Below, piece after piece: positions 22,009 through 64,000 of a stretch of DNA of 64,000 nt. Every line of letters begins with the position of its first letter. Positions within the stretch are counted from its first letter, which is position 1. The position numbers and the translations under genes are program-made. Below the pieces are notes generated by a model. The model made no database searches. It worked only from the letters and a program-made list of their open reading frames with translations, and was not told the origin of the DNA. The DNA is from an uncultured delta proteobacterium. GTDB lineage: Bacteria; Desulfobacterota; Desulfobacteria; Desulfobacterales; JAFDCJ01. The stretch spans positions 295,016-359,015 of the forward strand of contig CAVYNY010000018.1 of assembly GCA_963769935.1 (NCBI GenBank). The letters run 5' to 3'.

Positions 22009-22206
22009 AGGCTCAACCTGAACCCCCTACATAGTAATCCATCGTTGGTATATTCAATTTTAGTTGTTTCAGTTACTTTAGAGTACTGGCGTGTTGGATT
22101 AATGCCTGACGGATTGAGGTCTTTTTCTCCACGACTCCAAGATTAAGTCTTTAAAAAACTGCCGATTCAAATAACTATCCATTCAAACGATCACCGGTTC
22201 AAAAAC

Positions 22207-27309: not shown

Positions 27310-28107
27310 ATGAACCATCGGAATGTCACTGAAAATTCTATGGATATCACCGCTCGCGCAAACGAATTGATGGCAGACGGTCAAATTTTTTGCCTTGCCA
27401 CGGTTGTCTCTTCAGACATGCCCGGCATTGCGGCCGGACAAAAAGCGATTATTCTCGCAGACGGCTCGCTGGAAGGGGAAAGCGGCCAGGCGCAGCTGGA
27501 TTTGGCCATCCGGGATCAGGCGCTGGTCGTTCTCAAGGCTAAAAAGCGCGGGATGTTTGAAATTCAAAACGGGCTGCGTGTATTTTTCGATATACTTACC
27601 TGCGAATCCTCCCTGGTTGTCTGTGGAGCCGGACATATAGCCATTCCCCTGGTGCGCTTTGCGAAGGCAGTTGGATTCAAGGTTACCGTGCTTGATGATC
27701 GCTCCGATTTTGCGCATCCCTCCCGTTTTCCGGCCTGCACCGTTATTGCGGAAAATTTTTCAATCGCTTTGCGGGATATGTCGCTGGATGCATCCTCTTA
27801 TGTGGTCATTATCACCCGGGGTCATGAGCACGATGTGGACTGCCTGATGGAAATTTTGCCGAAGAAAGCCGCCTATGTGGGGTTGATCGGAAGTCGCCGG
27901 CGGGTGCGGTTTGTGCTTGAATGGCTGGAGAAAAACGGCATTTCCCGGCAGCGGTTGAATGATGTGTTTACCCCCATCGGCATTCCTATCGGAGCCGAAT
28001 CACCCGAAGAAATTGCGCTCTCCATCGTGGCCGAACTGGTCTGCGTGCGCCGCAAAGGCAGCGTCCGGGCGCGGACCCTGAGAGCGGCCGCAGGTATTGA
28101 TATATGA
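27310..28107 (+). CDS. XdhC/CoxI family molybdoenzyme accessory protein (Rossmann part)
   Basis: GAGHIA, ITRGH..D, YVGLIGSRRR, PIG..IGAESPEEIALSI.AE. Confidence 0.88.
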   Translation: MNHRNVTENSMDITARANELMADGQIFCLATVVSSDMPGIAAGQKAIILADGSLEGESGQAQLDLAIRDQALVVLKAKKRGMFEIQNGLRVFFDILTCESSLVVCGAGHIAIPLVRFAKAVGFKVTVLDDRSDFAHPSRFPACTVIAENFSIALRDMSLDASSYVVIITRGHEHDVDCLMEILPKKAAYVGLIGSRRRVRFVLEWLEKNGISRQRLNDVFTPIGIPIGAESPEEIALSIVAELVCVRRKGSVRARTLRAAAGIDI

Positions 28108-28421
28108 CGGATCGAGAAATATTCCAAAAGCTTTCGGAACTGAAAAATCAGGCAATCGACGCCGCGCTGGCCACCATCGTTGAAACCAGCGGTTCCACGC
28201 CCCGTGCGGTCGGCGCTAAAATGATTATCTGTGCCGACGGCACCCTTTACGGAACTGTCGGCGGCGGATGCGGTGAGAGCGAAGTGCGCAGTGCCGCTTT
28301 GCGTTGTCTGCTGACGACAAAGCAACCGGAACTCATTGAAGTCAGCTTGTTGGACGACTTGGGAACCAAAGGAGGAGATGTCTGCGGCGGCAAGATGTGG
28401 ATGTTTGTCGAACCGGTTTAA
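28104..28421 (+). CDS. Stand-alone XdhC/CoxI N-terminal domain
   Basis: LATIVETSGSTPR..GAKM, GTVGGGCGE, CGG.M.MFVEP. Overlaps the upstream gene by ATGA. Confidence 0.85.
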   Translation: MTDREIFQKLSELKNQAIDAALATIVETSGSTPRAVGAKMIICADGTLYGTVGGGCGESEVRSAALRCLLTTKQPELIEVSLLDDLGTKGGDVCGGKMWMFVEPV

Positions 28422-31014: not shown

Positions 31015-31287
31015 TTAATCTCCCCGGATGAATCTATCCAGCTCGGATTTGACCACTCGCCAGCCGCGCCCGATTCTTTGGGCTTTGATTTTACCGGACT
31101 TGATATACTTCAGGTATGTCGGGCGGGAAATCCTGAGATAGCAGCAGGCTTCCGGAGTACTAAATATTGCACCATTATCAATAGGATCCGGATTAGAATC
31201 GGTGCGCCGATCATAGCCGTTGCGCCGGTCGGACAGCTTGCGGCGATCATCGCGCCTGCGTTGATTTAACCTGCGTTTCTTTATCAT
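31015..31287 (-). CDS. Excisionase/BldC-like HTH_17 DNA-binding protein with an N-terminal DRR-repeat tail
   Basis: FSTPEACCYLRISRPTYLKYIKSGKIKAQRIGRGWRVVKSELDRFI. N-terminus RRRDDRRKLSDRRNGYDRR. gaggt RBS upstream. Confidence 0.85.
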   Translation of the reverse strand: MIKKRRLNQRRRDDRRKLSDRRNGYDRRTDSNPDPIDNGAIFSTPEACCYLRISRPTYLKYIKSGKIKAQRIGRGWRVVKSELDRFIRGD

Positions 31288-31530
31288 GAAATCGACCTCG
31301 AATCTTTTATTTAAATCAGGATGGTCTCAATCTAATATTATCGGCATTCAAACCGATTTCTTTACCACCCAATACCGTACTTATCGATAGAAACTGCTAA
31401 ATCGCAATTCAATACCTTTCCTTTTCTTTTTTCGAGTACCGACGCTTTCCGGCAGAATATCGTCCTTTTAGGATACTTGTCCGGTTATAATCAATTATTT
31501 TTTACCGACCAGGAATATTATTTACCCTCA

Positions 31531-31570
31531 ATGTGTAAAATACTGTAAAATCATGTAAAATGCTGTAAAT
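31531..31570 (+). promoter_or_regulatory. Four phased 10-bp direct repeats (nnnTGTAAAA), candidate operator
   Basis: atgtgtaaaa tactgtaaaa tcatgtaaaa tgctgtaaat, in the divergent intergenic region. Confidence 0.6.
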
Positions 31571-31881
31571 ATTAATTTTTTTTCTTGTAAATAGCGACGG
31601 AATATATTAAGGACCGCTTGAATATCCGATCTATTGAATGATTAAAAATAAATCAAACCCGCCATTATTCGATGATGAATTGCTATCAAACACCTTCCAT
31701 TATCTGGGTGACTGCTGATGAAACGATCTTGCATTTGGTTACGGATCTATGACTTTCTTTTGTTATGCGACTTGTCGTTTTGTCGGTTAGGCATGCCCGC
31801 CGGCCGCTGTTTTAAGGGCACGGGATTATCACCCTTTGAGGGGGGGTATTGATAGAAGTAATAGCCAAACAGCGATAGATG

Positions 31882-32121
31882 AAAGGTCAGAGGTGCGAGG
31901 CGGAAAGATGCAGTTATAAGGTTAAAGGACAAAGGATAAAGGTCAAAGAAGAATGGCTGGAAGGCGTGGAAGCTGATAGGCTTAAACGGATTGGTTGCTC
32001 GATGCTGGTCTCACCTTCTCACCTTCATACCTTCTCACCATCGGTCCTTGGCCTTCTGATTATGGTTTTTTTTGTCCTCCGTCTTCTATTTTCTGCCGTC
32101 TGTGCTCTGTGATCTAACATC
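31882..32121. repeat. Degenerate 7- and 8-mer microrepeat tracts (purine-rich, then pyrimidine-rich)
   Basis: aaggtta aaggaca aaggata aaggtca (31918-31945); ctcacctt ctcacctt catacctt (32010-32033); tgtcctc cgtcttc tattttc tgccgtc tgtgctc tgtgatc (32073-32114). Confidence 0.65.
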
Positions 32122-32181
32122 TGCTTGCCTCGCCATAGCCCTTTTGGGCGACGGCGGATCATCTGCATTCGGAGGGGGAAA

Positions 32182-35100
32182 ATGGGGAAGAGGTTTATTT
32201 TTATAAGCCGGATAGGGGTATATCTTGTTGTTTTATCGGCCGGACTGCTTATGCTGGGTCCGGCTTTTTCTTTGGCCGCGGACACGGTCTGTGCGCGGGT
32301 CAAAATCGAGATCAAGCAGGAGTTGACCTTGGAGCGGCAGGCGTTTGATGCGCACATGCGCATTACCAACGGTCTGGCCGGCATCATGCTGGATAACGTC
32401 AGGGTCGACGTCGCTTTCTCCGACGAAGACGGCAACAGTGTCCCGGCCGGCTCCGATCCGGGCAACACGGATGCGCTTTTTTTTATCCGGCCGGATTCCA
32501 TGGAAAACATCCATGACATCGACGGTTCGGGCACTGTTGCACCGGCCACCACCGCCGACATCCACTGGCTGATCATTCCGGCCCCGGGTTCCTCCAACGG
32601 TCTTGCCAAAGGCACGCTGTATTATGTCGGCGCGCGGCTGACCTACACCATTGGCGGCGAACAAAAAGTCACCGAGGTTACCCCCGATTACATCTTTGTC
32701 AAACCCATGCCCGAGCTTACCCTGGATTATTTTCTGCCCGCCGATGTCTACGGCGATGATCCCCTTACGCCGGAAATCGAGCCGGTCATCCCGTTTTCGC
32801 TGGGCGTGCGGGTTAAAAACAGCGGCTATGGGTTTGCCCGCCAGCTTAAGATTGATTCGGCCCAGCCCAAAATCATTGAAAATGACCAGGGCTTGCTGAT
32901 CGGTTTTGCCATCGAGGGCAGCAAGGTCAACGGAGAGCCGGCCGTCGACAGTCTGCTGGTGGATTTCGGTGACATTGCGCCCGGCAGCGCGGGGACGGCC
33001 CGCTGGATCATGACCTGCACTCTGTCGGGCAAGTTTGTCTCGTTCAGCGCCGAATATTCCCATTCAGACGAATTGGGCGGTGAGTTGACCTCGCTGATGA
33101 ACCCGCCCCGAACGCACTTTCTGGTCCAGGACGTTTTCGTGGATTTGCCCGGTCGGGACGCAATTCGCGACTTTTTGGCCAGAGACGGCGGGGTGTATCG
33201 CATCTATGAGTCGGAGACCACCGGTCTGGGAGACCCGGCGGACGAAGATCCGGCGGTGGCCGACCAGTCGGCGGCAGCCAGTCTGCAGATGAGCGTAAGC
33301 TCCGGTCAGCTGACGGCACCGGCGACGGCCGGCTTCATGTACGTACAGATCAACGACCCGTTTGCCGGGCAGAAAGTCCTCAAAGAGGTGATTCGCTCCG
33401 ACGGCAAGCGGATCAAACCGGAAAATGCCTGGCTGTCCAAGACGCGCGACGGAGCGCAAAACTGGCACTATTACGCCAACCTGTTCGATATGAATTCGCC
33501 GGGCAGCTACACCTTAAAATTTGAGGAAGTTACCGCTGTTCCGCAGCCCCCGGTGCTGCAGTTTATTCAAAATAAAACCGGCCTCGAGGGGCAGCAGATT
33601 TCCTTTCTCATTCATGCCAGTGATCCCAACGGAACAACGCCCGTGCTCACGGCGGCACCCCTGCCGGCCGGAGTTGTGTTTACCGATCAGGCAACCGGAA
33701 CCGGTGTATTTGATTGGACCCCCGGCATGGGGCAGGCCGGAACCTATGAAATCACCTTTAAAGCCTCCGACGGCCATCTGGCCGACAGCCGGCGGGTGAT
33801 TGTGGTCATCCGGTCAATCGACGACACCGACGGAGACGGCTTGCCGGATGCCTGGGAGATGAAAAATTTTGGATCTTTGGACCGCGACGGCTCCGCGGAT
33901 TTTGATGAAGACGGCCTTTCGGATCTGGCTGAATTTCTTATAGGCTCCAATCCGGCTGCAGAGGACCATGCCCCCACTCTTCCCGCAATTGCTGACCCTC
34001 CGGAGGGTGCTGATGTTGTCCTGCTGCAGCCGGATCTGGTGATTGAAAACAGCACCGATGAAGACGGTGACCTCCTGGCTTACGAGTTTGAGGTCTTTGC
34101 CGATCCGGCCATGACGGTTCTTGCGGCTGCGTCCGCTGATGTTGCGGAAACTGAGGATACCACCTCCTGGACGCTGCCGGACGCTCTCAACGACAACAGC
34201 CGCTATTATTGGCGCGTGCGGGCCACCGATGGCTACAGCTTCAGCCTGTGGACGTATGGAAGCTTCTTTGTGAATACAGCCAACAGCGCCCCCGGTCCTT
34301 TTAATGTCAGCTATCCGCGGGATGATTCTGAAGTCGACACTCTAACACCGGTTCTTGAAATTACCAACAGTCTGGATGTGGATCAAGATGATGTCACCTA
34401 CACCTTCGAAGTGTATGAAGACCGCACCATGAGCACCCCTGTAGCGTCGGCAACCGGCATTTCCCAAGGGCCGGGCGGGACGACGTGCTGGACGGTTCCC
34501 CCGGCATTGGCCGACAATACCTGGTATTTCTGGCGGGTGGTGGCCGTCGATGAACACAATGCCCGGGTCGAAACTGAATCGAGCTCTTTTTTGGTCAATA
34601 CCGCCCGTAAAGCACCGGATGCCCCGCGGATTGCATATCCGGCCCTGAATGCCGAAGCGGATGCTCTTGAGTTGGATCTGGCGGCAACCGGCAAAGGGGA
34701 TACGGACAGCATCTATTATTATTTTGAACTGGATAAAGTGAACACGTTTGATGGTCCTGCCCGCCTGGCTTCCGGTGAAATACCGGCGGGTGCCGAAATC
34801 GCGATCTGGCATGTGTTCGGCCTTGAAGACAACACCCGCTATTTCTGGCGTGTCAAAGCCGGAGACGAAATTGCCGAAAGCCGATGGACGACAGGCGAAT
34901 TTTTTGTCAATACCGCCAATCAGGCGCCATCGGTACCGACTCTCAACAACCCCGGGCATCAGGCCTGGGTTGGCGCCACAAGGCCGACACTGGGCGTCAA
35001 TCCGGCCGTTGATCCGGATGACGACCGCCTGAGCTACCACTTTGAAGTCTATGATGATGCCGAATTAACCCGTCTAAGGGCGCAGGGCGAATCGCCAACC

Positions 35101-38100
35101 TCCCAATGGACACTCCCCGAAGAACTGGCGGATAAAACCCGCTATTACTGGCGTGCAGCAGCTGAAGACGAGCATGGTCTGGCCGGCGACTGGATGAATG
35201 CCGCTTCCTTTTTTGTCAAAGATGCCGGGCCGGTTGTGCCGCCCGCCGAGATCGCCGTAAATGTTGCCTTCAGCACGGGCAGGGTGCTTGCCGGCCTGAA
35301 AATTTATTCCTTCACCCAGGCCGGTGTCTACACGGGCAAATCCGCTACAACAGATGAAAGCGGCACCGCTCTTTTTGCCGCCGCAGATTTTGCCGACGGG
35401 TCTTACATCTTCCGGGTGGATTACCTGGGGCAGCAATTCTGGTCCGGTGTGCTCTTACTGCCCGGGACCTATCAGCTGGATGTGATTATCAATGAAGAAA
35501 CCGTTGCGGTCGCCGTTGGCACCGGTGCCGGACCGGTCGCGGGCAGCAAGGTTTACCTGTTTTCCTCGGGCGGCTCCTATCTTGGAATTAATTCTGCCAC
35601 GGATGAAAACGGCACCGTTTTTTTTCAACTGCCCGCCGGAATACCCTTCAAGTTCCGGGCCGATATTTTAGGCAGCCAATACTGGAGTGATATTACAACA
35701 ATCGAAACCGGCGGTACCAGCCGGATTGAACTGGGGGCGGGCGGCGGCCATTTTCAGGTAACCCTTCGGGACGATGCTGCCATGCCGCTGGCGGGAATCA
35801 GGTGCTATCTGTTCAGCGCTGCCGGCGGCTATCTCGGATTGAATCAGGCAACCGATTCGGAGGGACGGGTGGCCTTTGATGTGCCTGAAGCAATTTATAA
35901 GGTGCGGGCCGATTATCTGGGTTATCAATTCTGGAGCTCGGAAACACAGGTTGTCATTGATACCAATATCGATTTTGCCATTGCCCGTCAGGACGTGGCC
36001 GTCACGGTTAACAGCCTGTTTCAGAATACCGCCATGCCGCTGGCCGGGATTCAGGTGTACCTGTTTAATCCTTCGGGTTCTTATATCGGCCGCTATCTGA
36101 CGACCGATGACAGGGGACAGGCAGCGTTTTATCTGCCTCAGCAGCCCTATAAAATTCGGGCCGATTTTCTGGGGCAGCAGTACTGGTCGGAGGTCTTCAC
36201 CTGGACCGATACCATCGTGAACATTCCCATGGCCGATGTTGAAATCAGCGTCATCGGCGGTACGCTGCCCGTGGCAGGTCAGGAAGTGTATGTGTTTTCG
36301 GCCGCCGATTCCTATCTGGGTATGCATCAATCCACCGACGGCGACGGCAGGGTGTTTTTCAGGCTGCCGGAAGGAGAGTACAAATTCCGCGCTGATTATC
36401 AGGGCGGCCAATTCTGGAGTGGGGTTGAGATGCTGGCCGTTGATGAGCTGAATTCCGTCACTCTTTCAACCGGCGGCGGCAGTTTTACCGTATCGGTTCT
36501 GAAGGGCAATTCAGAACCGCTGTCCGGTCTCAAAGCATACGTGTTCAATACCGCCGGCAACTATTTAGGCATGGCCGGGGCCACCGACAGCAATGGGCAG
36601 GTATTTTTTAATCTGGCGGTCGGCAATTTTAAGTTCAGGGTCGATTATCTGGCGCACGAATTCTGGAGTGAGGAAGTCACGGTACCCGATGTGATGTCGG
36701 CCGAGGTGATTATCGCGCATCAAACAACCACGGTTCAGGTGATCACGGGCGCGGGACCCGTGGAAGGCGCCAGGGTCTATCTTTTTTCCGACAGCGGGTC
36801 GTATCTCGGCCGCTGCCGGCAGACCGATGCCGCCGGCCTAGCCGTCTTTGACCTGCCGGTCGGCTTAAACTTTCAGTTCCGGGCTGACATTCTAGACAAC
36901 CCATACTGGAGCGAAGTTTCGACCGTTGCCGGCGACATGCCCAGCAACGTCCTGCTCGCTGCCGGCGGCGGTTTGCTGCAGGCGACGGTGCAAAAAGATG
37001 AAGAGACCCCCATGCCAGGCTGCAAAGTATCTCTTTTCAACACTGCGGGTACTTACCTGGGCGCCAATGCCTTGACCGACGGATTCGGTCTGGCGGAATT
37101 TGCTGTACCCGCGGGCACTTACAAACTACGGGTGGATTACCTTGGTTTTCAGTTCTGGAGCGCGAAAACCCTGGTTGCCGGAGACATGCCGGTTACGGTG
37201 AATATCCCGCACATGGCGGTTGAGATCACCGCGCAAGGTCTGTTCCAGGGGGTGCCGGTTCCAATTGAAGGAATTAAGGTTTATCTGTTTTCCCCCACGG
37301 ATGTCTACCTCGGCCAAAATCAAATCACCGATGCCGAGGGAAAGATGATTTTCGACCTGCCGCCGAAGCAGTACAAGGTGCGGGCGGATTATCTGGGCCG
37401 GCAGTTCTGGTCCGAGGTGTTTGACTGGCAGCATACCCCTGTCAATATCCCCCTGGCCGATGCTCAAGTCACGGTGACCGGGGCCGGCTTTCCCCGTCAG
37501 GACGTCAAAATATACGTATTTACCCCGGAGGGCACTTATCTGGGGCTTTCGGCCACAACCGATGCCGGCGGCAAGGCGGCCTGGCGGCTGCCGGCCGGTG
37601 CCTATAAGTTTCGGGTGGACTATCAGGGCCACCAATACTGGAGTGTCGAGCAGACCCTGACCGCTGATCTGGTAAACCCGGTGATTGTTTCGGTGGGCGG
37701 CGGATCGTTTAACTTAACAGTCTTAAAATCAGCGGCCGATCCCCTCGAGGGCATCAGGTGTTATGTGTTCAACGAGCAGGAGACATACCTCGGTTTAATG
37801 GGGGCCGCCAACTCCGACGGCCAAGTTTTTTTTGACCTGGCTGACGGTGCCTACAAGATGCGGGTGGACCATTTGGGTTACCAGTTCTGGAGTCCGGCAT
37901 ATGAAGTCCCCGATACGCTGTTCGCCGCTTTGGACCTCGGGCAGCAGGATGTGGTCGTTGCCGTGGAAGGTCTGTATCAAACCGTCGACCCTCTGGCCGG
38001 GCTGAAGGTCTATCTGTTTACGCCGGAAAATTCCTATCTGGGTCAAAATAAGACAACCGACGCCGACGGCCGGGTAACGTTTAGCCTGCCCGATCGGCCA

Positions 38101-38430
38101 TACCGGATTCGCGTCGACTATCTGGGGCATCAATTCTGGTCGGATAATTTTCAGACGCAAAACACCACCGTGACGATTCACAGGGGAATGGCGGCGGTTC
38201 ATGCCAGTCGATCGGGTTTCGATGCACCGGGAGCGGCGGTTTATCTTTTCAGTGAAAACGGATCCTATCTCGGGTGGAAAGAAACCACGGATGCAAACGG
38301 TCGAGCAGAGTTTATCCTGCCGGACCGTTCGTTCAAGTTCCGGGTGGATGACAAGGGGGAGCAGTACTGGAGCGATGTTGTTCAGATTCAGGCCGTTGAA
38401 GTGAACGCCGTTGAAGTGAATTTTGATTAA
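32182..38430 (+). CDS. Large secreted multidomain protein (~2080 aa): conserved N-terminal module, Ig-like domain, Ca-binding DxDGDG repeats, four Fn3-like repeats and 13 carboxypeptidase-regulatory-like repeats
   Basis: ggagggg RBS before the ATG at 32182; signal peptide ending AFSLA-A; DTDGDGLPD; four Y.FEV...Y(Y/F)WRV units; 13 units of VYLF...G.YLG...TD..G...F.LP...YK.R.DY.G.Q(F/Y)WS. Confidence 0.85.
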   Translation: MGKRFIFISRIGVYLVVLSAGLLMLGPAFSLAADTVCARVKIEIKQELTLERQAFDAHMRITNGLAGIMLDNVRVDVAFSDEDGNSVPAGSDPGNTDALFFIRPDSMENIHDIDGSGTVAPATTADIHWLIIPAPGSSNGLAKGTLYYVGARLTYTIGGEQKVTEVTPDYIFVKPMPELTLDYFLPADVYGDDPLTPEIEPVIPFSLGVRVKNSGYGFARQLKIDSAQPKIIENDQGLLIGFAIEGSKVNGEPAVDSLLVDFGDIAPGSAGTARWIMTCTLSGKFVSFSAEYSHSDELGGELTSLMNPPRTHFLVQDVFVDLPGRDAIRDFLARDGGVYRIYESETTGLGDPADEDPAVADQSAAASLQMSVSSGQLTAPATAGFMYVQINDPFAGQKVLKEVIRSDGKRIKPENAWLSKTRDGAQNWHYYANLFDMNSPGSYTLKFEEVTAVPQPPVLQFIQNKTGLEGQQISFLIHASDPNGTTPVLTAAPLPAGVVFTDQATGTGVFDWTPGMGQAGTYEITFKASDGHLADSRRVIVVIRSIDDTDGDGLPDAWEMKNFGSLDRDGSADFDEDGLSDLAEFLIGSNPAAEDHAPTLPAIADPPEGADVVLLQPDLVIENSTDEDGDLLAYEFEVFADPAMTVLAAASADVAETEDTTSWTLPDALNDNSRYYWRVRATDGYSFSLWTYGSFFVNTANSAPGPFNVSYPRDDSEVDTLTPVLEITNSLDVDQDDVTYTFEVYEDRTMSTPVASATGISQGPGGTTCWTVPPALADNTWYFWRVVAVDEHNARVETESSSFLVNTARKAPDAPRIAYPALNAEADALELDLAATGKGDTDSIYYYFELDKVNTFDGPARLASGEIPAGAEIAIWHVFGLEDNTRYFWRVKAGDEIAESRWTTGEFFVNTANQAPSVPTLNNPGHQAWVGATRPTLGVNPAVDPDDDRLSYHFEVYDDAELTRLRAQGESPTSQWTLPEELADKTRYYWRAAAEDEHGLAGDWMNAASFFVKDAGPVVPPAEIAVNVAFSTGRVLAGLKIYSFTQAGVYTGKSATTDESGTALFAAADFADGSYIFRVDYLGQQFWSGVLLLPGTYQLDVIINEETVAVAVGTGAGPVAGSKVYLFSSGGSYLGINSATDENGTVFFQLPAGIPFKFRADILGSQYWSDITTIETGGTSRIELGAGGGHFQVTLRDDAAMPLAGIRCYLFSAAGGYLGLNQATDSEGRVAFDVPEAIYKVRADYLGYQFWSSETQVVIDTNIDFAIARQDVAVTVNSLFQNTAMPLAGIQVYLFNPSGSYIGRYLTTDDRGQAAFYLPQQPYKIRADFLGQQYWSEVFTWTDTIVNIPMADVEISVIGGTLPVAGQEVYVFSAADSYLGMHQSTDGDGRVFFRLPEGEYKFRADYQGGQFWSGVEMLAVDELNSVTLSTGGGSFTVSVLKGNSEPLSGLKAYVFNTAGNYLGMAGATDSNGQVFFNLAVGNFKFRVDYLAHEFWSEEVTVPDVMSAEVIIAHQTTTVQVITGAGPVEGARVYLFSDSGSYLGRCRQTDAAGLAVFDLPVGLNFQFRADILDNPYWSEVSTVAGDMPSNVLLAAGGGLLQATVQKDEETPMPGCKVSLFNTAGTYLGANALTDGFGLAEFAVPAGTYKLRVDYLGFQFWSAKTLVAGDMPVTVNIPHMAVEITAQGLFQGVPVPIEGIKVYLFSPTDVYLGQNQITDAEGKMIFDLPPKQYKVRADYLGRQFWSEVFDWQHTPVNIPLADAQVTVTGAGFPRQDVKIYVFTPEGTYLGLSATTDAGGKAAWRLPAGAYKFRVDYQGHQYWSVEQTLTADLVNPVIVSVGGGSFNLTVLKSAADPLEGIRCYVFNEQETYLGLMGAANSDGQVFFDLADGAYKMRVDHLGYQFWSPAYEVPDTLFAALDLGQQDVVVAVEGLYQTVDPLAGLKVYLFTPENSYLGQNKTTDADGRVTFSLPDRPYRIRVDYLGHQFWSDNFQTQNTTVTIHRGMAAVHASRSGFDAPGAAVYLFSENGSYLGWKETTDANGRAEFILPDRSFKFRVDDKGEQYWSDVVQIQAVEVNAVEVNFD

Positions 38431-38507
38431 TTAATCCATCCTGAAAAATAGCACAATTCAGGGCGGAGTAATTATGCAATGAAAACATAATTAATTAGAG
38501 GAAAGTT

Positions 38508-41500
38508 ATGGGGCATTCAAGGGTTCGGGGATGGATGATGCTGTTAGTGGCGGGGGCTATTGTTTTTTCCGGAGTTGTTTCTGCTGATGCGGAATCCGAA
38601 TTATCCGTGACGCTGCCGCCATACGCTACGGAAGGCGCTGGACAGCTTGCGGGAGCAGGGAGTGTAACGGCATCGGAGCCTCCTGTGTCGGATGTGATTG
38701 TCGATCTGTATTCAAACGACCCATCGAAGGTCATCGTACCTGCCGGCGTGACGATTCCAGCCGGCCAAAGTTCGGCGGCGTTTGATCTTACCATTATAGA
38801 TGATCTTATCATCGATAAAATAACTGCTGTGACCGTCACTGCCTCGGCGCCGCAATGGTCGGCCGGTAAAGACACAATTTTGGTGGCCGACAATGACAGC
38901 ATCGATATTTCACATGCTGTTGCTTGCGGATATTATCACACACTGGCGTTGGAAAACGACGGCAGCGTATGGTCATGGGGAGCTGACGGAAACACTCCGG
39001 CGCCGGTCCCCGGAATAACCGAAATCATTGCCGTAGCGGCCGGATTTAAACATTCAATGGCGCTTCAAGCAGATGGCAACGTCTGGGCTTGGGGGGATAA
39101 TCATTTCGGACAGTTGGGTGAAGGAACGACAACCGATAGCAGTTCGCCCGTGCCGGTGTCCGGTCTTTCCGGAGTCATTGAAATCGCTGCAGGTTATTTT
39201 CACAGCATCGCTTTAAAGAGCGATGGCAGTGTGTGGGCCTGGGGAAGTAATACCTACGGACAATTAGGTGATGGGACGACAATCCATCGCAGCATACCCG
39301 TACAGGTCTCTAACTTGACCGACGTGGTTTCGATTGTCGCAGGACATTATCATAACCTGGCCCTAAAGGCCGATGGCAGCGTTTGGGTCTGGGGTGCTAA
39401 TTTTTATGGGCAGTTGGGTGAAGGAACGACAACCGATAGCAATACGCCCGTGCAAGTGCCTGGTCTTTCCGGAGTCACTGAAATCGCTGCTGGATCTGGT
39501 CACAGCCTGGCCATAAAGTCCGATGGCAGTGTATGGGCCTGGGGAAGCAACTACGAGGGGCAGATAGGTGAGGCAACACCGACCACTATCAGCATGCCCG
39601 TGCCGGTGTCACCGCTTAGCGGCATGGTTTCAATTGCCGCAGGATATTGTCATAGTCTGGCCTTAAAATCTGACGGCAGCGTCTGGACCTGGGGTTATAA
39701 CATATACGGGCAACTGGGAAGCGGAACCACTGAAAGCAGCAGCACGCCGCTGCAAGTCCCCAGTATTGAAGACGTTATTGCGACATTCGGCGGATTTAAT
39801 CGTACCCTGGCGGTTAAAGCGGACGGAACCATCTGGGCGTGGGGCCGGAATGATTCAGGTCAGCTGGGAGACGGCACCACCGAAAACAGGTTTTCTCCGG
39901 TCCAGGTGATTGGGTTTGGAGGAGCGGGCTTTTTTAACCTGAAAACCCTCGCAGTCAGCATTCCTGCAGATGTGGTTGAAAGCGGTGGTGTGCTTGAGAA
40001 TCAGGGGTTGGTGAGTATTGACGAACCCTTAGCCGACGATTTACTGGTGGAACTGAGTGCCGATGATTCCTCCGCGGTTCTGGTGCCGGCCACAGTGATC
40101 ATTCTGGCCGGGCAGACTTTTTCCGCTTTTGATTTGACCTTGGTGGATGACGATCTGCTGGACGGAACCCAAACGGTCACGGTTGCCGCATCGGCGCCTG
40201 ATTTTTCCGAAGGTACCGACACCATCCGGGTACATGATGATGAAACTGCGACGCTCAGTGTGGTTTTGCCGGAAGGCGCCCGGGAAGGAGACGGCGTACT
40301 TGCGGAGCAAGGGGCTGTCAACGTTAACACCCCTGTGGACAGTGATGTGGTAATTTCTTTGATCTCCAATGACACCAGCGAAATCACTGTGCCGGAAACT
40401 GTAACGATTGCAGCAGGGCAGACATCAACTTTATTTAACCTGACAATCATCGACGATACCGAAATTGATGATACTCGGACCGCGACCGTCACGGCATCCG
40501 TGACGGGCTGGAGTTCCGGCAGTGGTACCATGAACATATCAGACAATGAAATTAAAGAGTTGAGCATCGAATTACCGGAATCGGTTTCCGAGCGAGCAGG
40601 TCTGATGAGTGATGCTGGTAGTGTAATTATTCCGGGAACATTGACATACGGTCTTACGGTAAACCTTTCATCGGATAACCTCGTGAAGGCAGCAGTTCCG
40701 GTGACGGCCACCATACCGGCGGGTCAAACACGGGCGACCTTTGATTTGACCATTTTTGATAATGCATCCATCGACGGAGATTTTTCTGTAACCATTACAG
40801 CTTCGATTCCGGATTGGACTGCCGGCAGTGATAAGTTACAAGTATTGGACAATGATGGTGTGATCCCGACACCTGCTATTGCTGCCGGTGGTTCTCATAG
40901 CCTGGTACTCAAAGATGATATGACAGTCTGGGCTTGGGGTGACAACTACAGCGGGCAGTTGGGTGATGGCACAACGGTGGATAGCAGCTTACCTGTTAAG
41001 GTCTCTATCCTTACCGGCGTGATTTCTATTGCAGCGGGATATTTTCATAGCCTGGCCTTAAAAGCAGATGGCAGCGTTTGGGCTTGGGGCGAAAACTACC
41101 GCGGGCAGTTGGGTGATGGAACGACAACCAATAGCAGCATACCCGTCCAGGTGTACGGTCTCTCCGATATAATTGGAGTTGCTGCAGGAGAATATCATAG
41201 CCTGGCCCTAAAAGCGGATGGCAGCGTTTGGGCTTGGGGCGAAAACTACCGCGGGCAATTGGGTGATGGAACGACAACCAATAGCAGCACACCCGTCCAG
41301 GTCGCTAATCTTTCCGGTGTGGCTTCCCTATCGGCAGGCTATTATCATAGCCTGGCCTTAAAAGCGGATGGCAGCGTGTGGGCCTGGGGTTATAATTCAT
41401 ATGGACAGCTGGGTGAAGGAACGAAAATCAATAGTAACACACCTGTGCAGGTGTCAGGTCTTTCCGATGTAATTGGAGTTGCTGCAGGCTATTATCACAG

Positions 41501-54676: not shown

Positions 54677-56300
54677 CGAAGCGGACCAGGTAGAAGGGAT
54701 TCATCCCCCAGGGGTTCACGTTACACTGGGGTCCCCGGTATCGGTGCTGTCCTCCGGCAAGTCCGCTGTGCTGACCTGCCGGGTGTGGGCCGACAACACG
54801 GCCGGGGAGACCGGCAAAATCGTGCTCAAGGTTAAAAGCGATGAAACCGGTGTCGGGGCCTGGCAATCCGTGGTGATCAACACCCATTTTACGGAGGCGC
54901 ACCCGGTGCTGGATGCCGTGCCGCATTTCGTCGAGACCGGGGTGGTCCGGGGGGAGGCCGTCACCGAACGTCTGGTGCTGAACAACAAAGGCCTGGCGGA
55001 TCTGTTCGAATTGAAGCTGGCTCTCGTCGATGCCGATGATAACCCGGCGCCCGCCTGGGTCCAGCTGGGCGCTGCGGCGCAGCAGGGCACCCTGGCAATC
55101 GGTGAATCGCGCGAGATCAACCTGACCTTTGCGCCGACCGCTGAGGTGGCCGAAGGTGATTACACCTATTACCTGAAGGTTTCCGGCGACAACTATCCGC
55201 AGGCTAAAATCGCCCTGTACGCCGCCGTGCGGCAGGAAGGGCTGGGCAGTGCCCTGTTCAAGGTCATCGATGTCTACACCGGCACCCTCAATGCCGCTGG
55301 TGATATTATCCAGGGCGTTTCCGGAGCCAAGATTGCACTTCAAAACGAAACGGTTGAATCCATCAAATTTTCCGGAACTTCAAACAATCTTGGCGAGGTC
55401 GAGTTTTACGACATGCCGGCCGGCCGCTATTACTGTCGGGTGACCTCCGGCGGACACCAGGACTACAGCGGCCATTTGTGGATCAAGCCCGGAATCACAG
55501 CAACACAAGAGATTACCCTCCTGTATCGGGCCGTATCGGTGGAGTGGAATGTTACCGAAACCACCATCGAGGACAAATACGAAATCGTTTTATCCGCAAC
55601 CTATGAAACCAATGTGCCGGCGCCGGTCATCATCGCGGAACCGCTGTCCACCACCCTGCCGGAGATGCGTGCCGGCGATGTATACACCGGTGAATTCACC
55701 CTGACCAACTACGGCCTGATCCGGGGCGTTTTTTACGGCATCAAGCTGCCCGCGAACAACGAAAACTATACCTATGAATTTTTAAGCGGGTTGCCCGAGG
55801 CCCTGGAACCCAAACAGCGCATCAGCGTGCCCTTCCGGGTGACCTGCTTGAAATCAATCAATGCAAGCGACGGCTCCGGTACCGGTGGGGGCAGTGGGGA
55901 CGGTGCAGGCACCATTGAATTTCCATACCGCTCCAATTGCGCCGACAGTATAGCGGTTCACTACATTTTCGCAGAATCAGGCCAAGCCGCAGGTGCCGGC
56001 GGTGTTCTGAATCTTTCCGGTCCAAATGGATCCGCTGGGTTTGGATCTTCGGGCTCACCTTCCTCGAAAACCCTGTCCGGCACGCGCTGTATTCGGAAAC
56101 CGCCCCGCAGAGAATCGGGCAGGCTCAGCGGCGGACAGGGTGCGTCCAGCGACCGAAAAGAGACCAAACAAAACCAATGTCAAACCACCCATTCTTTTGT
56201 CAACACGGTATTGGGTGAATACAGCCGGGGCAAAGTGGATCTTGCCGTCAAAGTGCCGGGCGGCCGGATCGAGGTGTACCGGTCATATTATAACGACTAG
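54588..56300 (+). CDS. Giant adhesin-Rhs protein, segment 3: Ig/carboxypeptidase-like domains and pre-Rhs region
   Basis: Continues segment 2 (LQLV-YDEAD) after a +1 indel at 54671. Contains VEWNVTETTIEDKYEIVL.ATYETNVPAPV and VNT..GEY....VDL.V.VPGG.I.V.R.Y. Ends at an in-frame TAG. Confidence 0.75.
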   Translation: MRPAITSRTSTFRSPPARAPRSTICSWSYDEADQVEGIHPPGVHVTLGSPVSVLSSGKSAVLTCRVWADNTAGETGKIVLKVKSDETGVGAWQSVVINTHFTEAHPVLDAVPHFVETGVVRGEAVTERLVLNNKGLADLFELKLALVDADDNPAPAWVQLGAAAQQGTLAIGESREINLTFAPTAEVAEGDYTYYLKVSGDNYPQAKIALYAAVRQEGLGSALFKVIDVYTGTLNAAGDIIQGVSGAKIALQNETVESIKFSGTSNNLGEVEFYDMPAGRYYCRVTSGGHQDYSGHLWIKPGITATQEITLLYRAVSVEWNVTETTIEDKYEIVLSATYETNVPAPVIIAEPLSTTLPEMRAGDVYTGEFTLTNYGLIRGVFYGIKLPANNENYTYEFLSGLPEALEPKQRISVPFRVTCLKSINASDGSGTGGGSGDGAGTIEFPYRSNCADSIAVHYIFAESGQAAGAGGVLNLSGPNGSAGFGSSGSPSSKTLSGTRCIRKPPRRESGRLSGGQGASSDRKETKQNQCQTTHSFVNTVLGEYSRGKVDLAVKVPGGRIEVYRSYYND

Positions 56301-56327
56301 TGGCACTGGGAGCACCGGCGCAATAAT

Positions 56328-59300: not shown

Positions 59301-59942
59301 GCCAAATCGTATGGCTACAAGCCGGGATCAACATGGACCACTGATTCGCTGTTTATGAAGATAGGCGCCGAATATTACTACTACCAAAATGACCACCTGG
59401 GTACCCCCCAAAAGATGACGGCTGTCAATGGGGCTACTATTTGGTCAGCTAAATACTCTCCTTTTGGGGAAGCAAATATAAATACTTCTTCCACCGTAAT
59501 CAATCCTCTCCGCTTTCCTGGCCAATACTTTGATGAAGAAACGGGAACGAAATACAACTGGCATAGATACTACGATTCATTCATTGGAAGATATTTAAGA
59601 GTTGATCCAATTCTTCTTGTATTTACTGAAGAAAATCATCAAATTTTCCATCTTTCTTTTTTTCGACAACACCTAATAAACTATCTCCATATGTTTATAC
59701 ATTTAACAATCCATTGTCATATACTGACCCTAAAGGCTTGTTCTGTGGTTCAGAGCGAGATAATACAGAAGGTAAGGTCCCAGATAAACCACTACCTTGG
59801 TGTGATTTTAGTGAATGCTGTCGGCAACATGATAAATGTTATGAAGGAAAGCAGGGCTGTAATAAAACAAAAAAGCAGTGCGATGATGAATTCTGCAGAT
59901 GTTTATATGCTAAATCTTATTACATCGGTTGTGGCTCTTTAG
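56328..59942 (+). CDS. Giant adhesin-Rhs protein, segment 4: YD/Rhs repeats and Rhs-associated core
   Basis: Many Y.YD..G(N/R)L repeats, DHLGTPQ, LRFPGQYFDEETG..YNWHRYYD...GRYLRVDP. In frame with segment 3 across the TAG. The true frame shifts near 59660. Confidence 0.92.
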   Translation: MKFILDALGHVEFIDKGGVLYAAALLRLNPLSATLYLPETYIYKNDIYTITVWTDINNRRMRWQDRLWQLARIRWQRTHDILRHFERRFGQTTIRAGEDGRLSGIADRNDRQVIWYEYDGDLIASVHDIDGRRVEYGYTNDLLTQVADLTAGITRYEYDEKGRVEKAVNAENQEASVTYDEYGYVSSVVDVDSKGYFFDWDYDEGKGEYYTRIRYASGKIKEIWYDNDGDTQRVAINGRIIQKITKDGRNLIVDDGQGRLTRKEYDEWDNLTRVIYPDGTSVNYEYEHRFNRIIKETNERGVITEYEYDDAGNMIRKIEAAGTTDERVTEYTYDDDNNLLTIRRLAGADTAEALTEMTYDDAGNLSSLTDPENKITQFTEYDIMGNVLTKIDGRGKQWSYEYDAAGRLKAVIDPVVNNTEPYRNITSIYYDHLGNKVRKVDPLNRETLYGYDKNGNLSTVTDHLGNVTRYEYNDADQLIRQVDAEGKITRYEYDLDGRLVNTIDGNGNEIITEYNDAVISGCSSCSSSAGTNQPARISYPTFEKHFSYDKRGRKLVETDVLSETESYMTQFGYDDTGNLISRIDKEGNSTGYGYDSLNRLIKVTDAMNQETRYTYDNRDNLIALTDAENHTTRFEYDRNNRLVREIRPGGQQTVYNYDGAGNLIEKIDAKDQKTEYDYDDAGRLEEIRYYEPDDYTIPAKTVGFAYDRAGNLNGYDDGVTSAIYTFDDLNRKLSETVDYGKFELSYSYTYYKNGLKKTFTGPDGVTYEYTYDDNNQLSGVKIPNVGSITYSEYKWNKPTEVLLPGGSKRQYEYDPLMRVKSIIAKDPGQNILMNYQYNYDKVDNIKAKSTEHGSYSYGYDDLYRLTIADNPMQADEAFTYDAMGNRLTDASAIGNWDYNANNELLGYDKVAFEYDDNGNMVQKTVGGQITLFFYNLEDRLDRVEDGDGSVISSYYYDPFGRRLWKKASEQRIYFFYSDEGLIAEVDDAGNVAKSYGYKPGSTWTTDSLFMKIGAEYYYYQNDHLGTPQKMTAVNGATIWSAKYSPFGEANINTSSTVINPLRFPGQYFDEETGTKYNWHRYYDSFIGRYLRVDPILLVFTEENHQIFHLSFFRQHLINYLHMFIHLTIHCHILTLKACSVVQSEIIQKVRSQINHYLGVILVNAVGNMINVMKESRAVIKQKSSAMMNSADVYMLNLITSVVAL

Positions 59943-60031
59943 CAGGCGCTTATTGTGAAAGAGGTACAGAAGCACCTAGTAGCAAATATTTTGATCCTGC
60001 TAGAAAAGAAGGTCCTTGCGGCTGTGATTAG
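59714..60031 (+). CDS. Rhs core end and C-terminal toxin tip, phospholipase A2-like
   Basis: This frame reads YVYTFNNPLSYTDPKGL (Rhs boundary motif), then a 96-aa tip with 13 Cys, CCRQHDKCY and CDDEFCRCL. Confidence 0.8.
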   Translation: MSYTDPKGLFCGSERDNTEGKVPDKPLPWCDFSECCRQHDKCYEGKQGCNKTKKQCDDEFCRCLYAKSYYIGCGSLAGAYCERGTEAPSSKYFDPARKEGPCGCD

Positions 60032-60057
60032 GAAAAGATACAAAGGGATAATGATAA

Positions 60058-60411
60058 ATGAATGTAGGAACTGAAGGGGTTATATACATTTGGTTGAGTA
60101 TTATATGGATATCGGGATGGCCATTTATAGTTGTTCCTTTATTTTTATTTTTTAAAAGGAGCAAGATAATAAAAAAAGCTCTTTTCTTAATATTGGGTAT
60201 CCTGGCTTGCTATATCATACAGATAATTTTTGAATTTGCATCTATCCCTTTCTTAAAGGGAGAACTAAAAAACTATTTTCTTGAAAATAACTATCACTAT
60301 TTAACATGGATTATTCGAATAATTACAGTCTGTAGGCTAATGATAGCTTTGGTTGTACTTTCCATTATGTCTAAATTGCAAATTTTTGATATAGTTGACA
60401 AAAAAGGATAG
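60058..60411 (+). CDS. Small membrane protein (~3 TM), candidate cognate immunity protein
   Basis: Lies 26 bp after the toxin tip, is AT-rich and has three hydrophobic segments. The function is inferred from position. Confidence 0.6.
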   Translation: MNVGTEGVIYIWLSIIWISGWPFIVVPLFLFFKRSKIIKKALFLILGILACYIIQIIFEFASIPFLKGELKNYFLENNYHYLTWIIRIITVCRLMIALVVLSIMSKLQIFDIVDKKG

Positions 60412-60430
60412 AAAGACACTGTGGATATTA

Positions 60431-61413
60431 TGGAATGAACCCCTAAAACTGCACAGATCACAGCAATGTGATCAGAGTGTTTTGACCAGGCTCTGGGGTT
60501 AATTCAAACATCAATTCAAATTCGTAAGGAGGACGGTAACCAATAGCGGAATGCAGCCGCTTATGATTATACACATCTTCGATAAAATATGGAATCCGTT
60601 TTTGGACATCTTCCATGGTACGGTATTCCCAAAGATGGACTTCCTCGGATTTTAAGGTTTTCATAAAACTTTCCGCAAAGGCATTATCATAGGGGTTGCC
60701 TTTACGGCTCATGCTATTTGAAACCCATAGAACTTAAGCTCTTTTACATAATCGGCGGATGCATATTGCACACCGCGATCCGAATGATGAATACATCCCC
60801 ACGGTGGATTCCGGTTGACGATGGCCATGCGCAAGGCGTCCAATGTCAGCTGCGTATCGATATTGCGTGAGATCGCATAGCCGATCGTTTTGCGGGAATA
60901 GACATCCAAGATCACCGCCAAGTAAATAAAGCATACCAGGATATGGATGTAAGTGATATCGGCCAGCCACAGCTGGTTGATCCCGTTTAAAGTTAAATCT
61001 TTGATCAGATTCGGGAACACCGGCAGCTTGTTGTTGCTATCTGTGGTACAAACCCACTTTTTCTTTTGGGGTCGGCAAAGCCATTGGTTTCTCGCGCATG
61101 ATGCGGTGAACTTTCTTGTGATTGACCAGCCAGCCTTCGCGCTTGATTTGTTCGGTCACCCGGCGGTATCCATACTTGGGAAAGTCCAGGCAAATTTGCT
61201 CTATACGCTCAAGCAGCGCTTTGTCAGAAGGTTTTTTCTTCGGCTTATAGTAGAAACTGCGTCGGGGAAGATTCATCAGTTCACACCCCCTTTCAATGTT
61301 TTCGATGAGGGGGCGGTTTTCGGTAATAAACTTTCTTTTTTCTGAGTTTGTTTGAGGCTGTTGCGTACGGCTTTTTTTAAAAATTCATTTTCCAGGGTAA
61401 CCTTACCCAACAG
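60431..61413 (-). mobile_element. IS3-family insertion sequence, 5'-truncated
   Basis: OrfB pieces with YGYRRV, WLADITY, HHSDRGVQY and NAFAESFMKTLKSE (indels near 61085 and 60715). The OrfA C-terminus ends at 61276. One terminal IR, TGGAATGAACCCCTAAAACTGCACAG, at 60431; the other end is missing. Confidence 0.9.
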
Positions 61414-62323
61414 TATGATCCATTCGGCAGAAGGTTGTGGAAAGAATTTGAAGGAGTCAGAACTTATTTTATATACTCTGATGAGGGTTTGGTTGCCGAG
61501 ATTGATGTACTCGGCAATATTACCAAATCCTATGGTTACAAAACAAGCTTTACATGGACCACTGATCCGGTGTACATGAAGGTTGGCAATCAATACTATT
61601 TTTATCAAAATGACCATTTAGGTACTCCACAGAAACTAACTGCTGTCAATGGAGCGGTTGTCTGGTCCGCGAAGTACTCCTCGTTTGGTGAAGCAGATGT
61701 CGATACTTCATCTTGCTTTACAAATAATCTCCGCTTTCCAGGTCAGTTCTTCAATGAAGAAACAGGGCTGCATTATAACTACTTTAGATTTTATTATCCG
61801 AAAACAGGCCGATATCTTAGAACGGATCCTGCTGGTATTATGAGAGGCCTAAACCATTTGTACGGATATTCTAGGAATAACCCTTTACTTTATGTAGATA
61901 TATTTGGGCTTAAGTGTACTGTAGTAGATAGCTTAACAACTCAAACTAATCGATTTGAACACGAAGATGTTGTTTACGGAAATTGGATATATGACACCTA
62001 TGATAGATTCAACGTAAAATGCTGGTGCATCTACTACAGAGATCTTCGAATAGATGTCATTAGGATAGATGCTTTCCGTGTACAAAAGGCACTAAAATGC
62101 ACTGAAAAAGATGAATGTGGAGTAGAGTCTATTTATTATAAGTATGAAACATCTTACGAAAAAGATGTTGAAACGTTCTCCAAATCTGGTGGCAGAGAGT
62201 ACGAACAGCGCTTATAGCTGGATGACTGGAACAGAAGATGTTGAATCTGGTGATGATTGTCATTGTAGTCCAGCTTTCCCAGCCCCTCCCGGATGGTATC
62301 AAAACAAAAAAGTAGAAAAATGA
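61414..62323 (+). pseudogene. Orphan Rhs core plus alternative Cys-rich C-terminal tip (cassette 1)
   Basis: Begins abruptly at YDPFGRRLWKE; has DHLGTPQ, LRFPGQ and NNPLLYVDIFGL, then an unrelated tip. The ORF stops at 62217, but a +1 correction extends it (YSWMTG...CHC...VEK) to 62323. Confidence 0.82.
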
Positions 62324-62351
62324 AATCCAAGAATTTGTAAGGAGAGATTAT

Positions 62352-62951
62352 ATGATATCCTTACCTTATAGGTATTGTTCACATATTTATAATATATTTA
62401 TTTTATCAAGCCTCTTTTTATTATCCTTTTTGTGCATATCATGCCACGCTGATAGCAATGATCAATTTGGGGGAATTATACTCCCTATATATCCGGGTAG
62501 TTATTCAATAAAGCAAGGATATGACTCGAAAATAAAATGCAAATATGCAATATATAAAATAAAGGCTGATTTTCCTGCTGCTGAGGTAGTTAAATACTTA
62601 GAAAATGCATCTCGAGATATGAATTTAGACTATTATAGGGGTGATGGTTCTGGCTCGATGCAATGGGAAAGCTTTAACTATGCTACTGGTAATTGGGAAA
62701 AAGCTGATGGGATACCTGCACGGTATACCGGAACATGGATGGATGAAAAGAGAGAAAAACTCTTTCTTTTACTTATGTCATATAAATACGATGGAAGTAA
62801 CGATGAATGGAAAAATACCTTGAATGTCGATTGCAAAGTCTGCCAGTATTTTCCAGAATATGAACGGAGTGAACCCCCTGAAGAAGTAAAGCAAAAGGTA
62901 AAGCCCCAATTTTTTGGGCTAAATCCAGATTTCCCAACTAGTCAATTATAA
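62352..62951 (+). CDS. Exported hypothetical protein, candidate immunity protein for orphan cassette 1
   Basis: aaggag RBS, hydrophobic N-terminus ending CHA-D, low GC, directly after the orphan tip. Confidence 0.65.
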   Translation: MISLPYRYCSHIYNIFILSSLFLLSFLCISCHADSNDQFGGIILPIYPGSYSIKQGYDSKIKCKYAIYKIKADFPAAEVVKYLENASRDMNLDYYRGDGSGSMQWESFNYATGNWEKADGIPARYTGTWMDEKREKLFLLLMSYKYDGSNDEWKNTLNVDCKVCQYFPEYERSEPPEEVKQKVKPQFFGLNPDFPTSQL

Positions 62952-63178
62952 TTAAAGCATTGCCATGGCAGCGTTTAAGCCTGAATTCATATTGCACGAA
63001 AACGTTGTGGAATTTGTCCAGGGATATCAACGTCGGCGACCGTAAGAAAGATCATATCGGAGAAGGCATTTAAGTGGAGTAGGAAGGGTCACATCTTAAA
63101 TATTAAATATTTGCTTTTTTATCTTCTCTAATCTGCGGTTAAAAGGTCAGTTTTGGGCTGCCTCCTGTGAGGAATATA

Positions 63179-63386
63179 GGGACGGTCATGAATAAATGCA
63201 TTTCTTTATTCGACCAAAATTAATTTCAAATCCTGAGCCAATTTTTCTCCTCTCACAACTGCCCGGCTCACCGCCGGCTGACCCAAACTTAACAGGTTAC
63301 CGACACTGGTTCCGCTCATCCCTAATTCTCGGACCGCCCAATAACAAACCAAACTCCTGGCCTTTACTCGCAACGGCTGATTACCA
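63179..63386 (-). mobile_element. 3' remnant of a probable REP-associated (Y1/HUH) tyrosine transposase gene
   Basis: Minus strand reads QPLRVKARSLVCYWAVRELG-MSGTSVGNLLSLGQPAVSRAVVRGEKLA (one indel), stop at 63206, then ...gaccgtcccc. It resembles the C-terminal HTH of such transposases; this is from recall and the catalytic part is absent. Confidence 0.55.
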
Positions 63387-64000
63387 CTGCCAGGCGGAAG
63401 CAGAAGACAGTAGGATTATGATCCGCTCATGCGAGTGAGATCGATCTTCGCTAAAGACCCGGGACAGAATATTTTGATGAATTATCAGTACAACTATGAT
63501 AGGGTGGATAACGTCCTGGCCAAGGACACCGAACGCAGCTCATACATTTACGGCTATAATGATCTGTATCACCTGACAAGTGCCGACAATCCGATTCAAG
63601 CGGATGAATCCTACACTTACGACGCGGTAGGTTATCGCCAGACGGATGACGGTGCTGCAGAAAATTATAACTACAATAATAACAACGAGCTTTTGGGTTA
63701 TGATAATGCAGTTTTCGAATACGATGGCAACGGAAACATTATCCAAAATACCGTCGATAGTCAGGTTACATTGTTCTTTTACAATTCAGAGGATCGTTTG
63801 GATCGAGTTGAAGACGGCAACGGCTCAGTGATAGCCTTATACTAATATGATCCATTCGGGAGAAGGCTTTGGAAGGAAGTTGAAGGAGTCAGAACCTATT
63901 TTTTATATTCTGATGAAGGTCTTGTTGCCGAGGTGACGATTCCGGCAATGTTACCAAATCATACGGTTACAAGCCTGTCTCTACATGGACCACAGATCCC
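63387..64000 (+). pseudogene. Decayed orphan Rhs fragment (cassette 2); runs off the right edge
   Basis: Colinear with 58734-59350 (LPGGS.RQ...DPLMRV.SI.AKDPGQNILMNYQYNYD). In-frame stops at 63411 and 63843 and an indel near 63935. Confidence 0.85.

Follow-up and report, generated by a model that had tools for sequence, protein, structure and literature searches.

A likely type II-secreted Rhs toxin system with a conserved, apparently undescribed scaffold in an uncultured desulfobacterial genome

We analyzed a 64,000-nucleotide stretch of DNA (the window) from an uncultured delta proteobacterium (GenBank assembly GCA_963769935.1, contig CAVYNY010000018.1, positions 295,016 to 359,015 of the forward strand). 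The genome spans 8.0 Mb in 41 contigs, and the window is the end of the contig labelled C18. Nearest named homologues of its proteins come from Desulfobacterales metagenome-assembled genomes (MAGs). The window carries the genes of a predicted Rhs polymorphic toxin: a large partner protein, A, and a giant gene, B-Rhs, in which a conserved region (the B core) precedes an Rhs part and a toxin tip. Positions of the open reading frames (ORFs), obtained by re-reading the window, agreed with those of a preliminary description made from the same sequence. The principal features are as follows.

32182..38430, forward strand: partner A, 2,082 amino acids; signal peptide and conserved head, followed by repeats of the He_PIG, TSP3, Fn3/Ig and CarboxypepD-like types
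32269..33540, forward strand: A head, an unnamed all-beta domain of about 420 amino acids; three Ig-like sandwiches, near-invariant N-terminal cysteine
38508..50546, forward strand: piece 1 of the giant gene, with a signal peptide and a variable stalk of RCC1 propellers (four blocks) and Calx-beta-like, Big and Fn3 modules
50459..54676, forward strand: giant gene piece 2; Fn3/Big modules and the start of the conserved B core
54588..56300, forward strand: giant gene piece 3; end of the B core and start of the Rhs part, terminated by an in-frame amber codon
56301..59942, forward strand: piece 4 of the giant gene, with the YD repeats and the Rhs core; two frameshifts near the start and one in the core
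59714..60031, forward strand: piece 5 of the giant gene, carrying the DPxG motif and a toxin tip that is PLA2-like and rich in cysteine (CCxxHD motif)
52001..56105, forward strand: conserved B core, about 1,300 amino acids, unnamed, spanning pieces 2 and 3; Ig-like string with a cysteine hairpin and Gly-rich linker at its end

The five colinear pieces (38508-60031; 7,174 codons in total) are one gene of about 7,170 codons, as the preliminary description had proposed, because five of the six breaks conflict with short-read contigs and the gene is unbroken in relatives of the same genus. The breaks number six, not four: frameshifts at about 50445, 54671, 56524, 56615 and 59656, and an in-frame amber codon at 56298-56300. 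At all five frameshifts, short-read contigs (one to three of low depth at each) differed from the assembly by a single base. This comparison drew on four runs from three studies, the best-matching of which may be the source sample, and the amber codon was not among the positions shown. In the same-genus genome G007, every piece matched in order inside one complete ORF of 4,403 amino acids (45-66% identity). The same arrangement, at the same identities, was found in same-genus G009, where a 4,413-amino-acid ORF runs to the contig end. Intact frames in other relatives measured 3,747-4,007 amino acids. Other genes of this genome are broken likewise, namely a rhodanese-like gene described below and glgB and xdhC (window positions 10621-12679 and 27310-28421); the frameshift-split state of the latter two fits a long-read assembly with indel errors.

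The amber codon sits within a motif that is unbroken in relatives with fused B and Rhs parts. A true gene boundary at this codon was ruled out, as the motif is continuous in those relatives and no signal peptide follows. It is possible that the codon is an assembly error, a true nonsense change, or read through. Read-through is possible because the genome has pylS and tRNA-Pyl. These map to 284000-287000 of contig C11 (pylS over cut-off), where a corrinoid protein and a methylamine-methyltransferase-like gene, the latter split, are their neighbors. TAG terminates 472 of the genome's 2,032 long ORFs, and one in-frame amber codon occurs in each of the main Rhs gene and the orphan cassette termed orphan 1 below.

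Once rejoined, the giant protein runs from a signal-like N-terminus through four RCC1 blocks, Calx-beta/Big/Ig/Fn3 modules and the conserved core to the YD repeats, Rhs core and tip. The very long stalk previously noted is present here but is a strain-level extra, as relatives have either fused proteins of 3,700-4,400 amino acids or three separate genes. The stalk is also swappable, with beta-helix/CARDB modules in relatives at the position of the RCC1 blocks.

Gene A has a ribosome-binding site and encodes a hydrophobic, signal-like N-terminus, in keeping with the secreted protein of about 2080 amino acids described before. The gene was also complete in an independent assembly cluster. Searches with the A head gave 1,473 matches at E<=1e-20 among 7,994 candidates; at 50% clustering the family counted 3,256 representatives, with 2,173 at E<1e-30. 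All A-head matches were annotated as hypothetical or after their Ig parts. A Pfam/NCBIfam scan of 78 A heads returned no real family match, and sequence searches of the PDB with the A head and parts of the B core returned 0 matches at E<=1. The structural model contained three beta-sandwiches (pLDDT 85.5), for which fold searches found generic Ig matches only (best Z 8.1 over 102 residues; Foldseek TM <= 0.25). Matches to alpha-2-macroglobulin/complement were discarded (root-mean-square deviation near 39 Å). In the ESM Atlas, the A head led to unnamed clusters, and B to CarboxypepD leads under 0.9. The N-terminal cysteine was retained in 77 of 78 A-head sequences.

The B core of a relative was modeled as a string of Ig domains (pLDDT 80), and the most conserved B hairpin was the least confident stretch of this B-only model. 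One B-core cysteine was invariant (86 of 86 sequences). Where Rhs is a separate gene, stand-alone B terminates in a Cys/Gly-rich tail, and 94 of 109 such proteins had an odd number of cysteines at this end. The copy studied here lacks two hairpin cysteines of B, the first and the third. The A head and B core likely form one module, because they are fused in a single chain, with a variable insert between them, in a protein of Nostoc PCC 7120 (WP_044523664.1), in genome G038, and in LOC100371179 of the hemichordate Saccoglossus kowalevskii, which has the fusion three times. Both invariant cysteines, that of A and that of B, are missing from the G038 fusion. An interchain disulfide may link the A head to the B core, judging from these cysteine patterns. 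LOC100371179 itself is a 7,485-amino-acid animal membrane protein with pentraxin-, CUB-, EGF- and cadherin-like parts (named by eye) and RRKR sites after its B part.

The two parts also recur together as neighbors. Among 80 A-head loci, we found the B core in 26, Rhs in 29, a transglutaminase-like (TG) gene in 43, a rhodanese-like (RH) gene in 30, and at least one of these in 70. For the 30 loci with full-length A, profiles detected B core/Rhs in 21 and upstream B segments were present in 6 more (27 of 30). Counting from the B side gave 79 distinct loci after one duplicate was dropped, of which 59 had at least 2 kb of room. Rhs was next or fused in 57 of these 59 (18 fused), and the other two had A next. 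The linkage of A-head homologues to signal-peptide Rhs genes, which the preliminary description had put forward as its check, was found from both sides. Stand-alone Rhs ORFs after B carried a signal-like hydrophobic stretch in 46 of 47 cases, as assessed by hydropathy only and with near-duplicates included.

TG and RH are rare, co-occurring genes absent from the preliminary description, which had proposed a two-protein system. The linked secreted partner was borne out, but at least these two further genes are conserved. The RH family was present in 42 of 50 carrier genomes (a chosen subset of 78) versus 5 of 300 phylum genomes. Four of those five were the 4 genomes with a close A head; three phylum genomes with a divergent, Rhs-less A head were without RH. 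The TG protein has a membrane anchor and an intact C-H-D triad. RH carries a signal peptide, has no conserved catalytic cysteine and often bears CxxC at its C-terminus. In Methylomonas koyamae, a fused B-Rhs gene, RH, TG and A lie together. Here TG and RH are on another contig, where they are paired (C6; 12223-14229 of locus L100) and RH is frameshifted.

The A/B module also occurs without Rhs, with short inserts, with a Hint-ended insert in genome G027, in the RTX-type Nostoc protein, and in the hemichordate membrane protein. At the G027 locus (L089, 2832-4229), the B core is followed by a short insert, hydrophobic and helical, and by a Hint-like domain at the C-terminus, and gene A with its own signal peptide comes after this gene.

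The preliminary description left the route across the outer membrane open; a type II secretion system (T2SS) is now the most likely one. T2SS genes adjoin A in relatives, with gspG adjacent in 11 and gspE in 13 of the 80 A loci, and a plasmid of Eleftheria terrae has a complete cluster in the order B-Rhs-ankyrin-A-gspGFE..D-pseudopilins-RH-TG. Across genomes, GspG exceeded its cut-off in 49 of 50 carriers versus 210 of 301 in the phylum sample. The present genome encodes a full T2SS (gspF-G-H-I-K-L-N-C-D-E) on contig C28. TpsB and type I secretion system (T1SS) genes were ruled out as a recurrent neighbor, as the recurrent neighbor of about 570 amino acids is GspE. The E. terrae T2SS (locus L189, 23906-35660) is a compact subtype that has RH and TG at its end and a secretin with an annotated cohesin domain; our literature search found no paper on it.

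Independence from a type VI secretion system (T6SS), suggested earlier from the window, held at the genome level. VipB was found in 21 of 50 carriers, many of these 50 being incomplete MAGs, and had no match in the other 29, and a VgrG profile had no match across 160 loci. The 32 window ORFs scanned contained no match to PAAR, VgrG, Tc, TpsB or T1SS families, as previously reported, and SpvB/TcdB/TcA Pfam families had none in A, B or an intact relative. Because the A/B pair recurs in many bacteria with the TG and RH genes and often with a T2SS operon, it probably represents a toxin system that uses type II rather than type VI secretion and has not been described before.

The Rhs part matched PF05593, PF03527, TIGR01643 and TIGR03696, with YD repeats followed by an Rhs-associated core whose DPxG motif spans one of the breaks. 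PDB Rhs matches reached E 1e-55 and cover the generic YD shell only. As read from its domains, the toxin of this locus truly belongs to the Rhs polymorphic toxins, though to neither their T6SS nor their Tc kind. The tip resembles PLA2: it scored 27.6 bits against PF06951 (E 3e-6; cut-off 34), contains CCxxHDxCY, and weakly matched another tip that passes. The 37 tips compared were mutually unrelated except for near-duplicates. Eleven of 36 scanned tips matched Pfam: PLA2 (three), PT-HINT with RNase, AHH and GH-E nucleases (six), Ntox16, and AMOP. The immunity-like gene and orphan cassettes reported downstream of the tip were recovered; in E. terrae, the ankyrin gene occupies the place of a candidate immunity gene.

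60058..60411, forward strand: candidate immunity protein, 117 amino acids, three hydrophobic helices, 27 nucleotides after the tip; assigned by position and hydropathy only, no family
60458..61400, reverse strand: IS3-type transposase remnant (rve, rve_2, rve_3 matches)
61414..62324, forward strand: orphan 1, an Rhs core with a different tip, broken near its end; 71% DNA identity to the main core, TIGR03696
62352..62951, forward strand: candidate immunity protein of orphan 1, signal-like N-terminus; assigned by position and hydropathy, no family
63387..64000, forward strand: second orphan Rhs cassette, 78% DNA identity to the main gene over 612 nucleotides, cut by the contig end

Upstream of A, the reported divergent helix-turn-helix (HTH) gene and phased, operator-like array were both confirmed.

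31015..31287, reverse strand: HTH_17 (excisionase-like) DNA-binding protein, divergent, candidate regulator (PF12728 47.6 bits, TIGR01764)
31534..31569, forward strand: phased array of four TGTAAA at exact 10-bp spacing, likely operator (motif scan)

A four-copy array is expected 4e-8 times per genome, assuming independence, and only one array of three or more copies exists elsewhere in the 8-Mb genome. The array is probably an operator of these loci, because the same-genus genomes G008 and G018 also have it upstream of the cluster, and an Rhs gene on contig C33 is preceded by it too. The latter (C33, 1-7750) is a second signal-peptide gene with Ig and YD repeats, in three pieces and without the A/B core, preceded by the second phased TGTAAA array; a shared regulon is possible. 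Proteins of the HTH_17 type bind phased direct repeats, and regulation of the locus by the HTH protein is plausible. No HTH homologue was found beside any other locus, ruling it out as a conserved system regulator, and four additional HTH_17 matches exceeded the cut-off in the genome. Sigma-70 promoter and terminator scans of the locus were at chance level, and Rfam had no match upstream of the genes. Elsewhere in the window (17046-22998), an RdgC-like ORF, dnaN, gyrB and a thymidylate-synthase-like ORF occupy a stretch of low G+C content in which dnaA and recF are lacking; it may be a mobile or second copy.

Rhs polymorphic toxins exported by Sec and T2SS are already on record in general. Zhang et al. 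(2012; PMC3482391), in the portion of the text available, list such toxins with the same plan of signal peptide, RHS repeats and variable tip, list Tox-PLA2 with T2SS export in delta-proteobacteria, and cite MafA/MafB as a constant partner-toxin pair. Its Table 1 gives this route without signature neighbor genes, unlike the A/B/TG/RH loci. The transglutaminase domains it describes are inactive and toxin-fused, whereas TG here stands as a gene of its own and keeps its triad, and the terms 'rhodanese' and 'fibronectin' have 0 occurrences in that available text.

The closest tested case is Bcn-A of Xanthomonas perforans, an Rhs toxin with an immunity gene whose activity is T6SS-independent, is lost in an xpsD mutant, and is found in cell-free supernatant (PMC7259588, as far as its text was available). 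The export of the present system would resemble that of Bcn-A by analogy. In the same partial text, Bcn-A differs in its 1,398 amino acids and in that an 8-kb fragment with accessory ORFs of 100-290 amino acids suffices, leaving no room for A or B. The neighbors that mark its family are a TamB-like gene upstream and the small ORF2-5. The available part of a preprint (bioRxiv 10.1101/2025.05.08.652813) reports gspG-linked Rhs families, XRhs F VIII in Xanthomonas and RRhs F II in Ralstonia. Linkage to gspG occurs in relatives of our system, not at this locus. XRhs F VIII is given there as present in 118 Xanthomonas genomes. The A head is rare by contrast: of 300 genomes from the Pseudoxanthomonas family, 10 contained it, as did one 7-member X. 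arboricola cluster, which argues against identity with XRhs F VIII/Bcn-A. Overlap with XRhs F VIII/RRhs F II synteny, mainly in Ralstonia, could exist, the families having been compared by description.

Bacterial teneurin-like proteins, as portrayed in the accessible part of PMC13018210, are likewise toxins with a YD shell and variable adhesion domains; no delivery machine is known for them, and animals have their scaffold as well. They are Sec-exported single chains with a TIP/FN-plug/NHL/YD superfold, and that part of the text describes no partner gene or T2SS link. Teneurin families had no match over cut-off in A and B (TEN_YD-shell 43 versus 50 bits), and no NHL was found. The T6SS Rhs effectors RhsA, RhsP, Tse5 and Tre23 and the Tc toxin component TcC share the YD shell, Rhs core, DPxG motif and orphan cassettes, but here PAAR, VgrG, Eag, SpvB and TcB domains are absent and signal peptides are present instead. 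We found no account of the A/B/TG/RH scaffold in the open-access literature searched, a scope that leaves most subscription papers outside. The scaffold is conserved and apparently undescribed.

We consider it probable that A and the giant B-Rhs protein, with its swappable tip, constitute an antibacterial polymorphic toxin whose chains are exported by Sec, joined through the A head and B core, and released by T2SS. Both proteins would cross the inner membrane by way of their signal-like N-termini. The A head would complete the hairpin region at the C-terminal end of the B core, perhaps via an interchain disulfide, and the TG-like and RH-like periplasmic proteins would mature or chaperone the complex. 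The variable Ig/RCC1 stalks may bind surfaces or prey. The Rhs shell would cage the tip until cleavage at the DPxG motif releases it, whereupon the PLA2-like tip would attack membranes, with the downstream membrane protein serving as immunity.

Several observations weigh against this model. A chain of about 780 kDa with a folded Rhs shell far exceeds any T2SS cargo that we know of. T2SS is widespread in the phylum anyway (70%), and the T2SS, TG and RH genes of this genome all lie on other contigs than the locus. The genome also has a T6SS, unlinked to the locus (C7, 155000-176000; two VipB matches and VgrG). An even cysteine count ends 15 of the 109 stand-alone B proteins, and many A heads contain a second cysteine. 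The tip match falls under the Pfam cut-off, the candidate immunity gene has no family, and the amber codon may leave this copy inactive. Finally, many of the carrier genomes are incomplete MAGs, and kin among them are not independent.

The strongest rival, which we rate somewhat below an even chance, shares the same export but has the complex tethered on the producer surface, killing by contact only over a reach set by the stalk. Such a role would suit the adhesin-like modules, thousands of residues long, that A and B both carry, as well as the orphan cassettes, which are typical of kin-discriminating systems, and the membrane-anchored TG protein could use its intact triad to cross-link an anchor. 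However, neither A nor B showed a lipobox, a membrane helix in its interior or any known anchor domain, and Bcn-A acts in cell-free supernatant according to the available text of PMC7259588.

It is unlikely that A/B is mainly a secreted adhesin or matrix scaffold, with Rhs an optional passenger and tips such as PLA2 possibly aimed at protists. The Rhs-less forms of the module described above fit this idea, as do loci L134 and L149, where B is followed by A with no Rhs, and PLA2 domains also act on eukaryotic membranes (PMC3482391, available text). Yet Rhs is nearly always present in the A/B/TG/RH type (57 of 59), the tips include HINT-linked nucleases, and immunity-like genes come next. We likewise doubt that this copy is a decaying pseudogene of an otherwise real family. 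Its amber codon in the Rhs N-terminal motif, the IS3 remnant, the broken orphans and RH gene, and the two absent hairpin cysteines would suit decay, but short-read contigs contradict five of the six breaks, the housekeeping genes glgB and xdhC are broken in the same way, and amber read-through may occur. Delivery of the Rhs part by the genome's T6SS or a Tc-like partner, with signal peptides incidental, is very improbable: VipB and VgrG on C7 and best PDB matches to T6SS Rhs effectors point that way, but those matches are limited to the generic YD shell, 29 of 50 carriers have no VipB match, no VgrG lies in the 160 loci, and nearly all stand-alone Rhs genes encode signal-like N-termini.

A broader and more tentative proposal, which we rate as less likely than not, is that B core and A head together make up a general module of ancient origin for displaying cargo, in which two separately exported chains lock and present the end of B. 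The cargo there might be an Rhs-caged toxin, a Hint-released peptide or a helical insert. In Proteobacteria and Desulfobacterota, the module would have its own T2SS and its own transglutaminase/rhodanese pair for maturation, which would set it apart as a class of toxin delivery capable of megadalton-scale export, and it might have passed to animals as a surface protein, like teneurins.

The probable model of Sec export, A/B joining and T2SS release bears on the question of how Rhs toxins with signal peptides get across the outer membrane and to their targets without a T6SS. The system is widespread and compact in its genetics (A, B, Rhs, immunity, TG, RH and a dedicated T2SS), occurs in culturable non-pathogens and includes two large, unnamed conserved domains. 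Such a system would probe the size limit of T2SS cargo and would hint that animals share a second toxin scaffold with bacteria.

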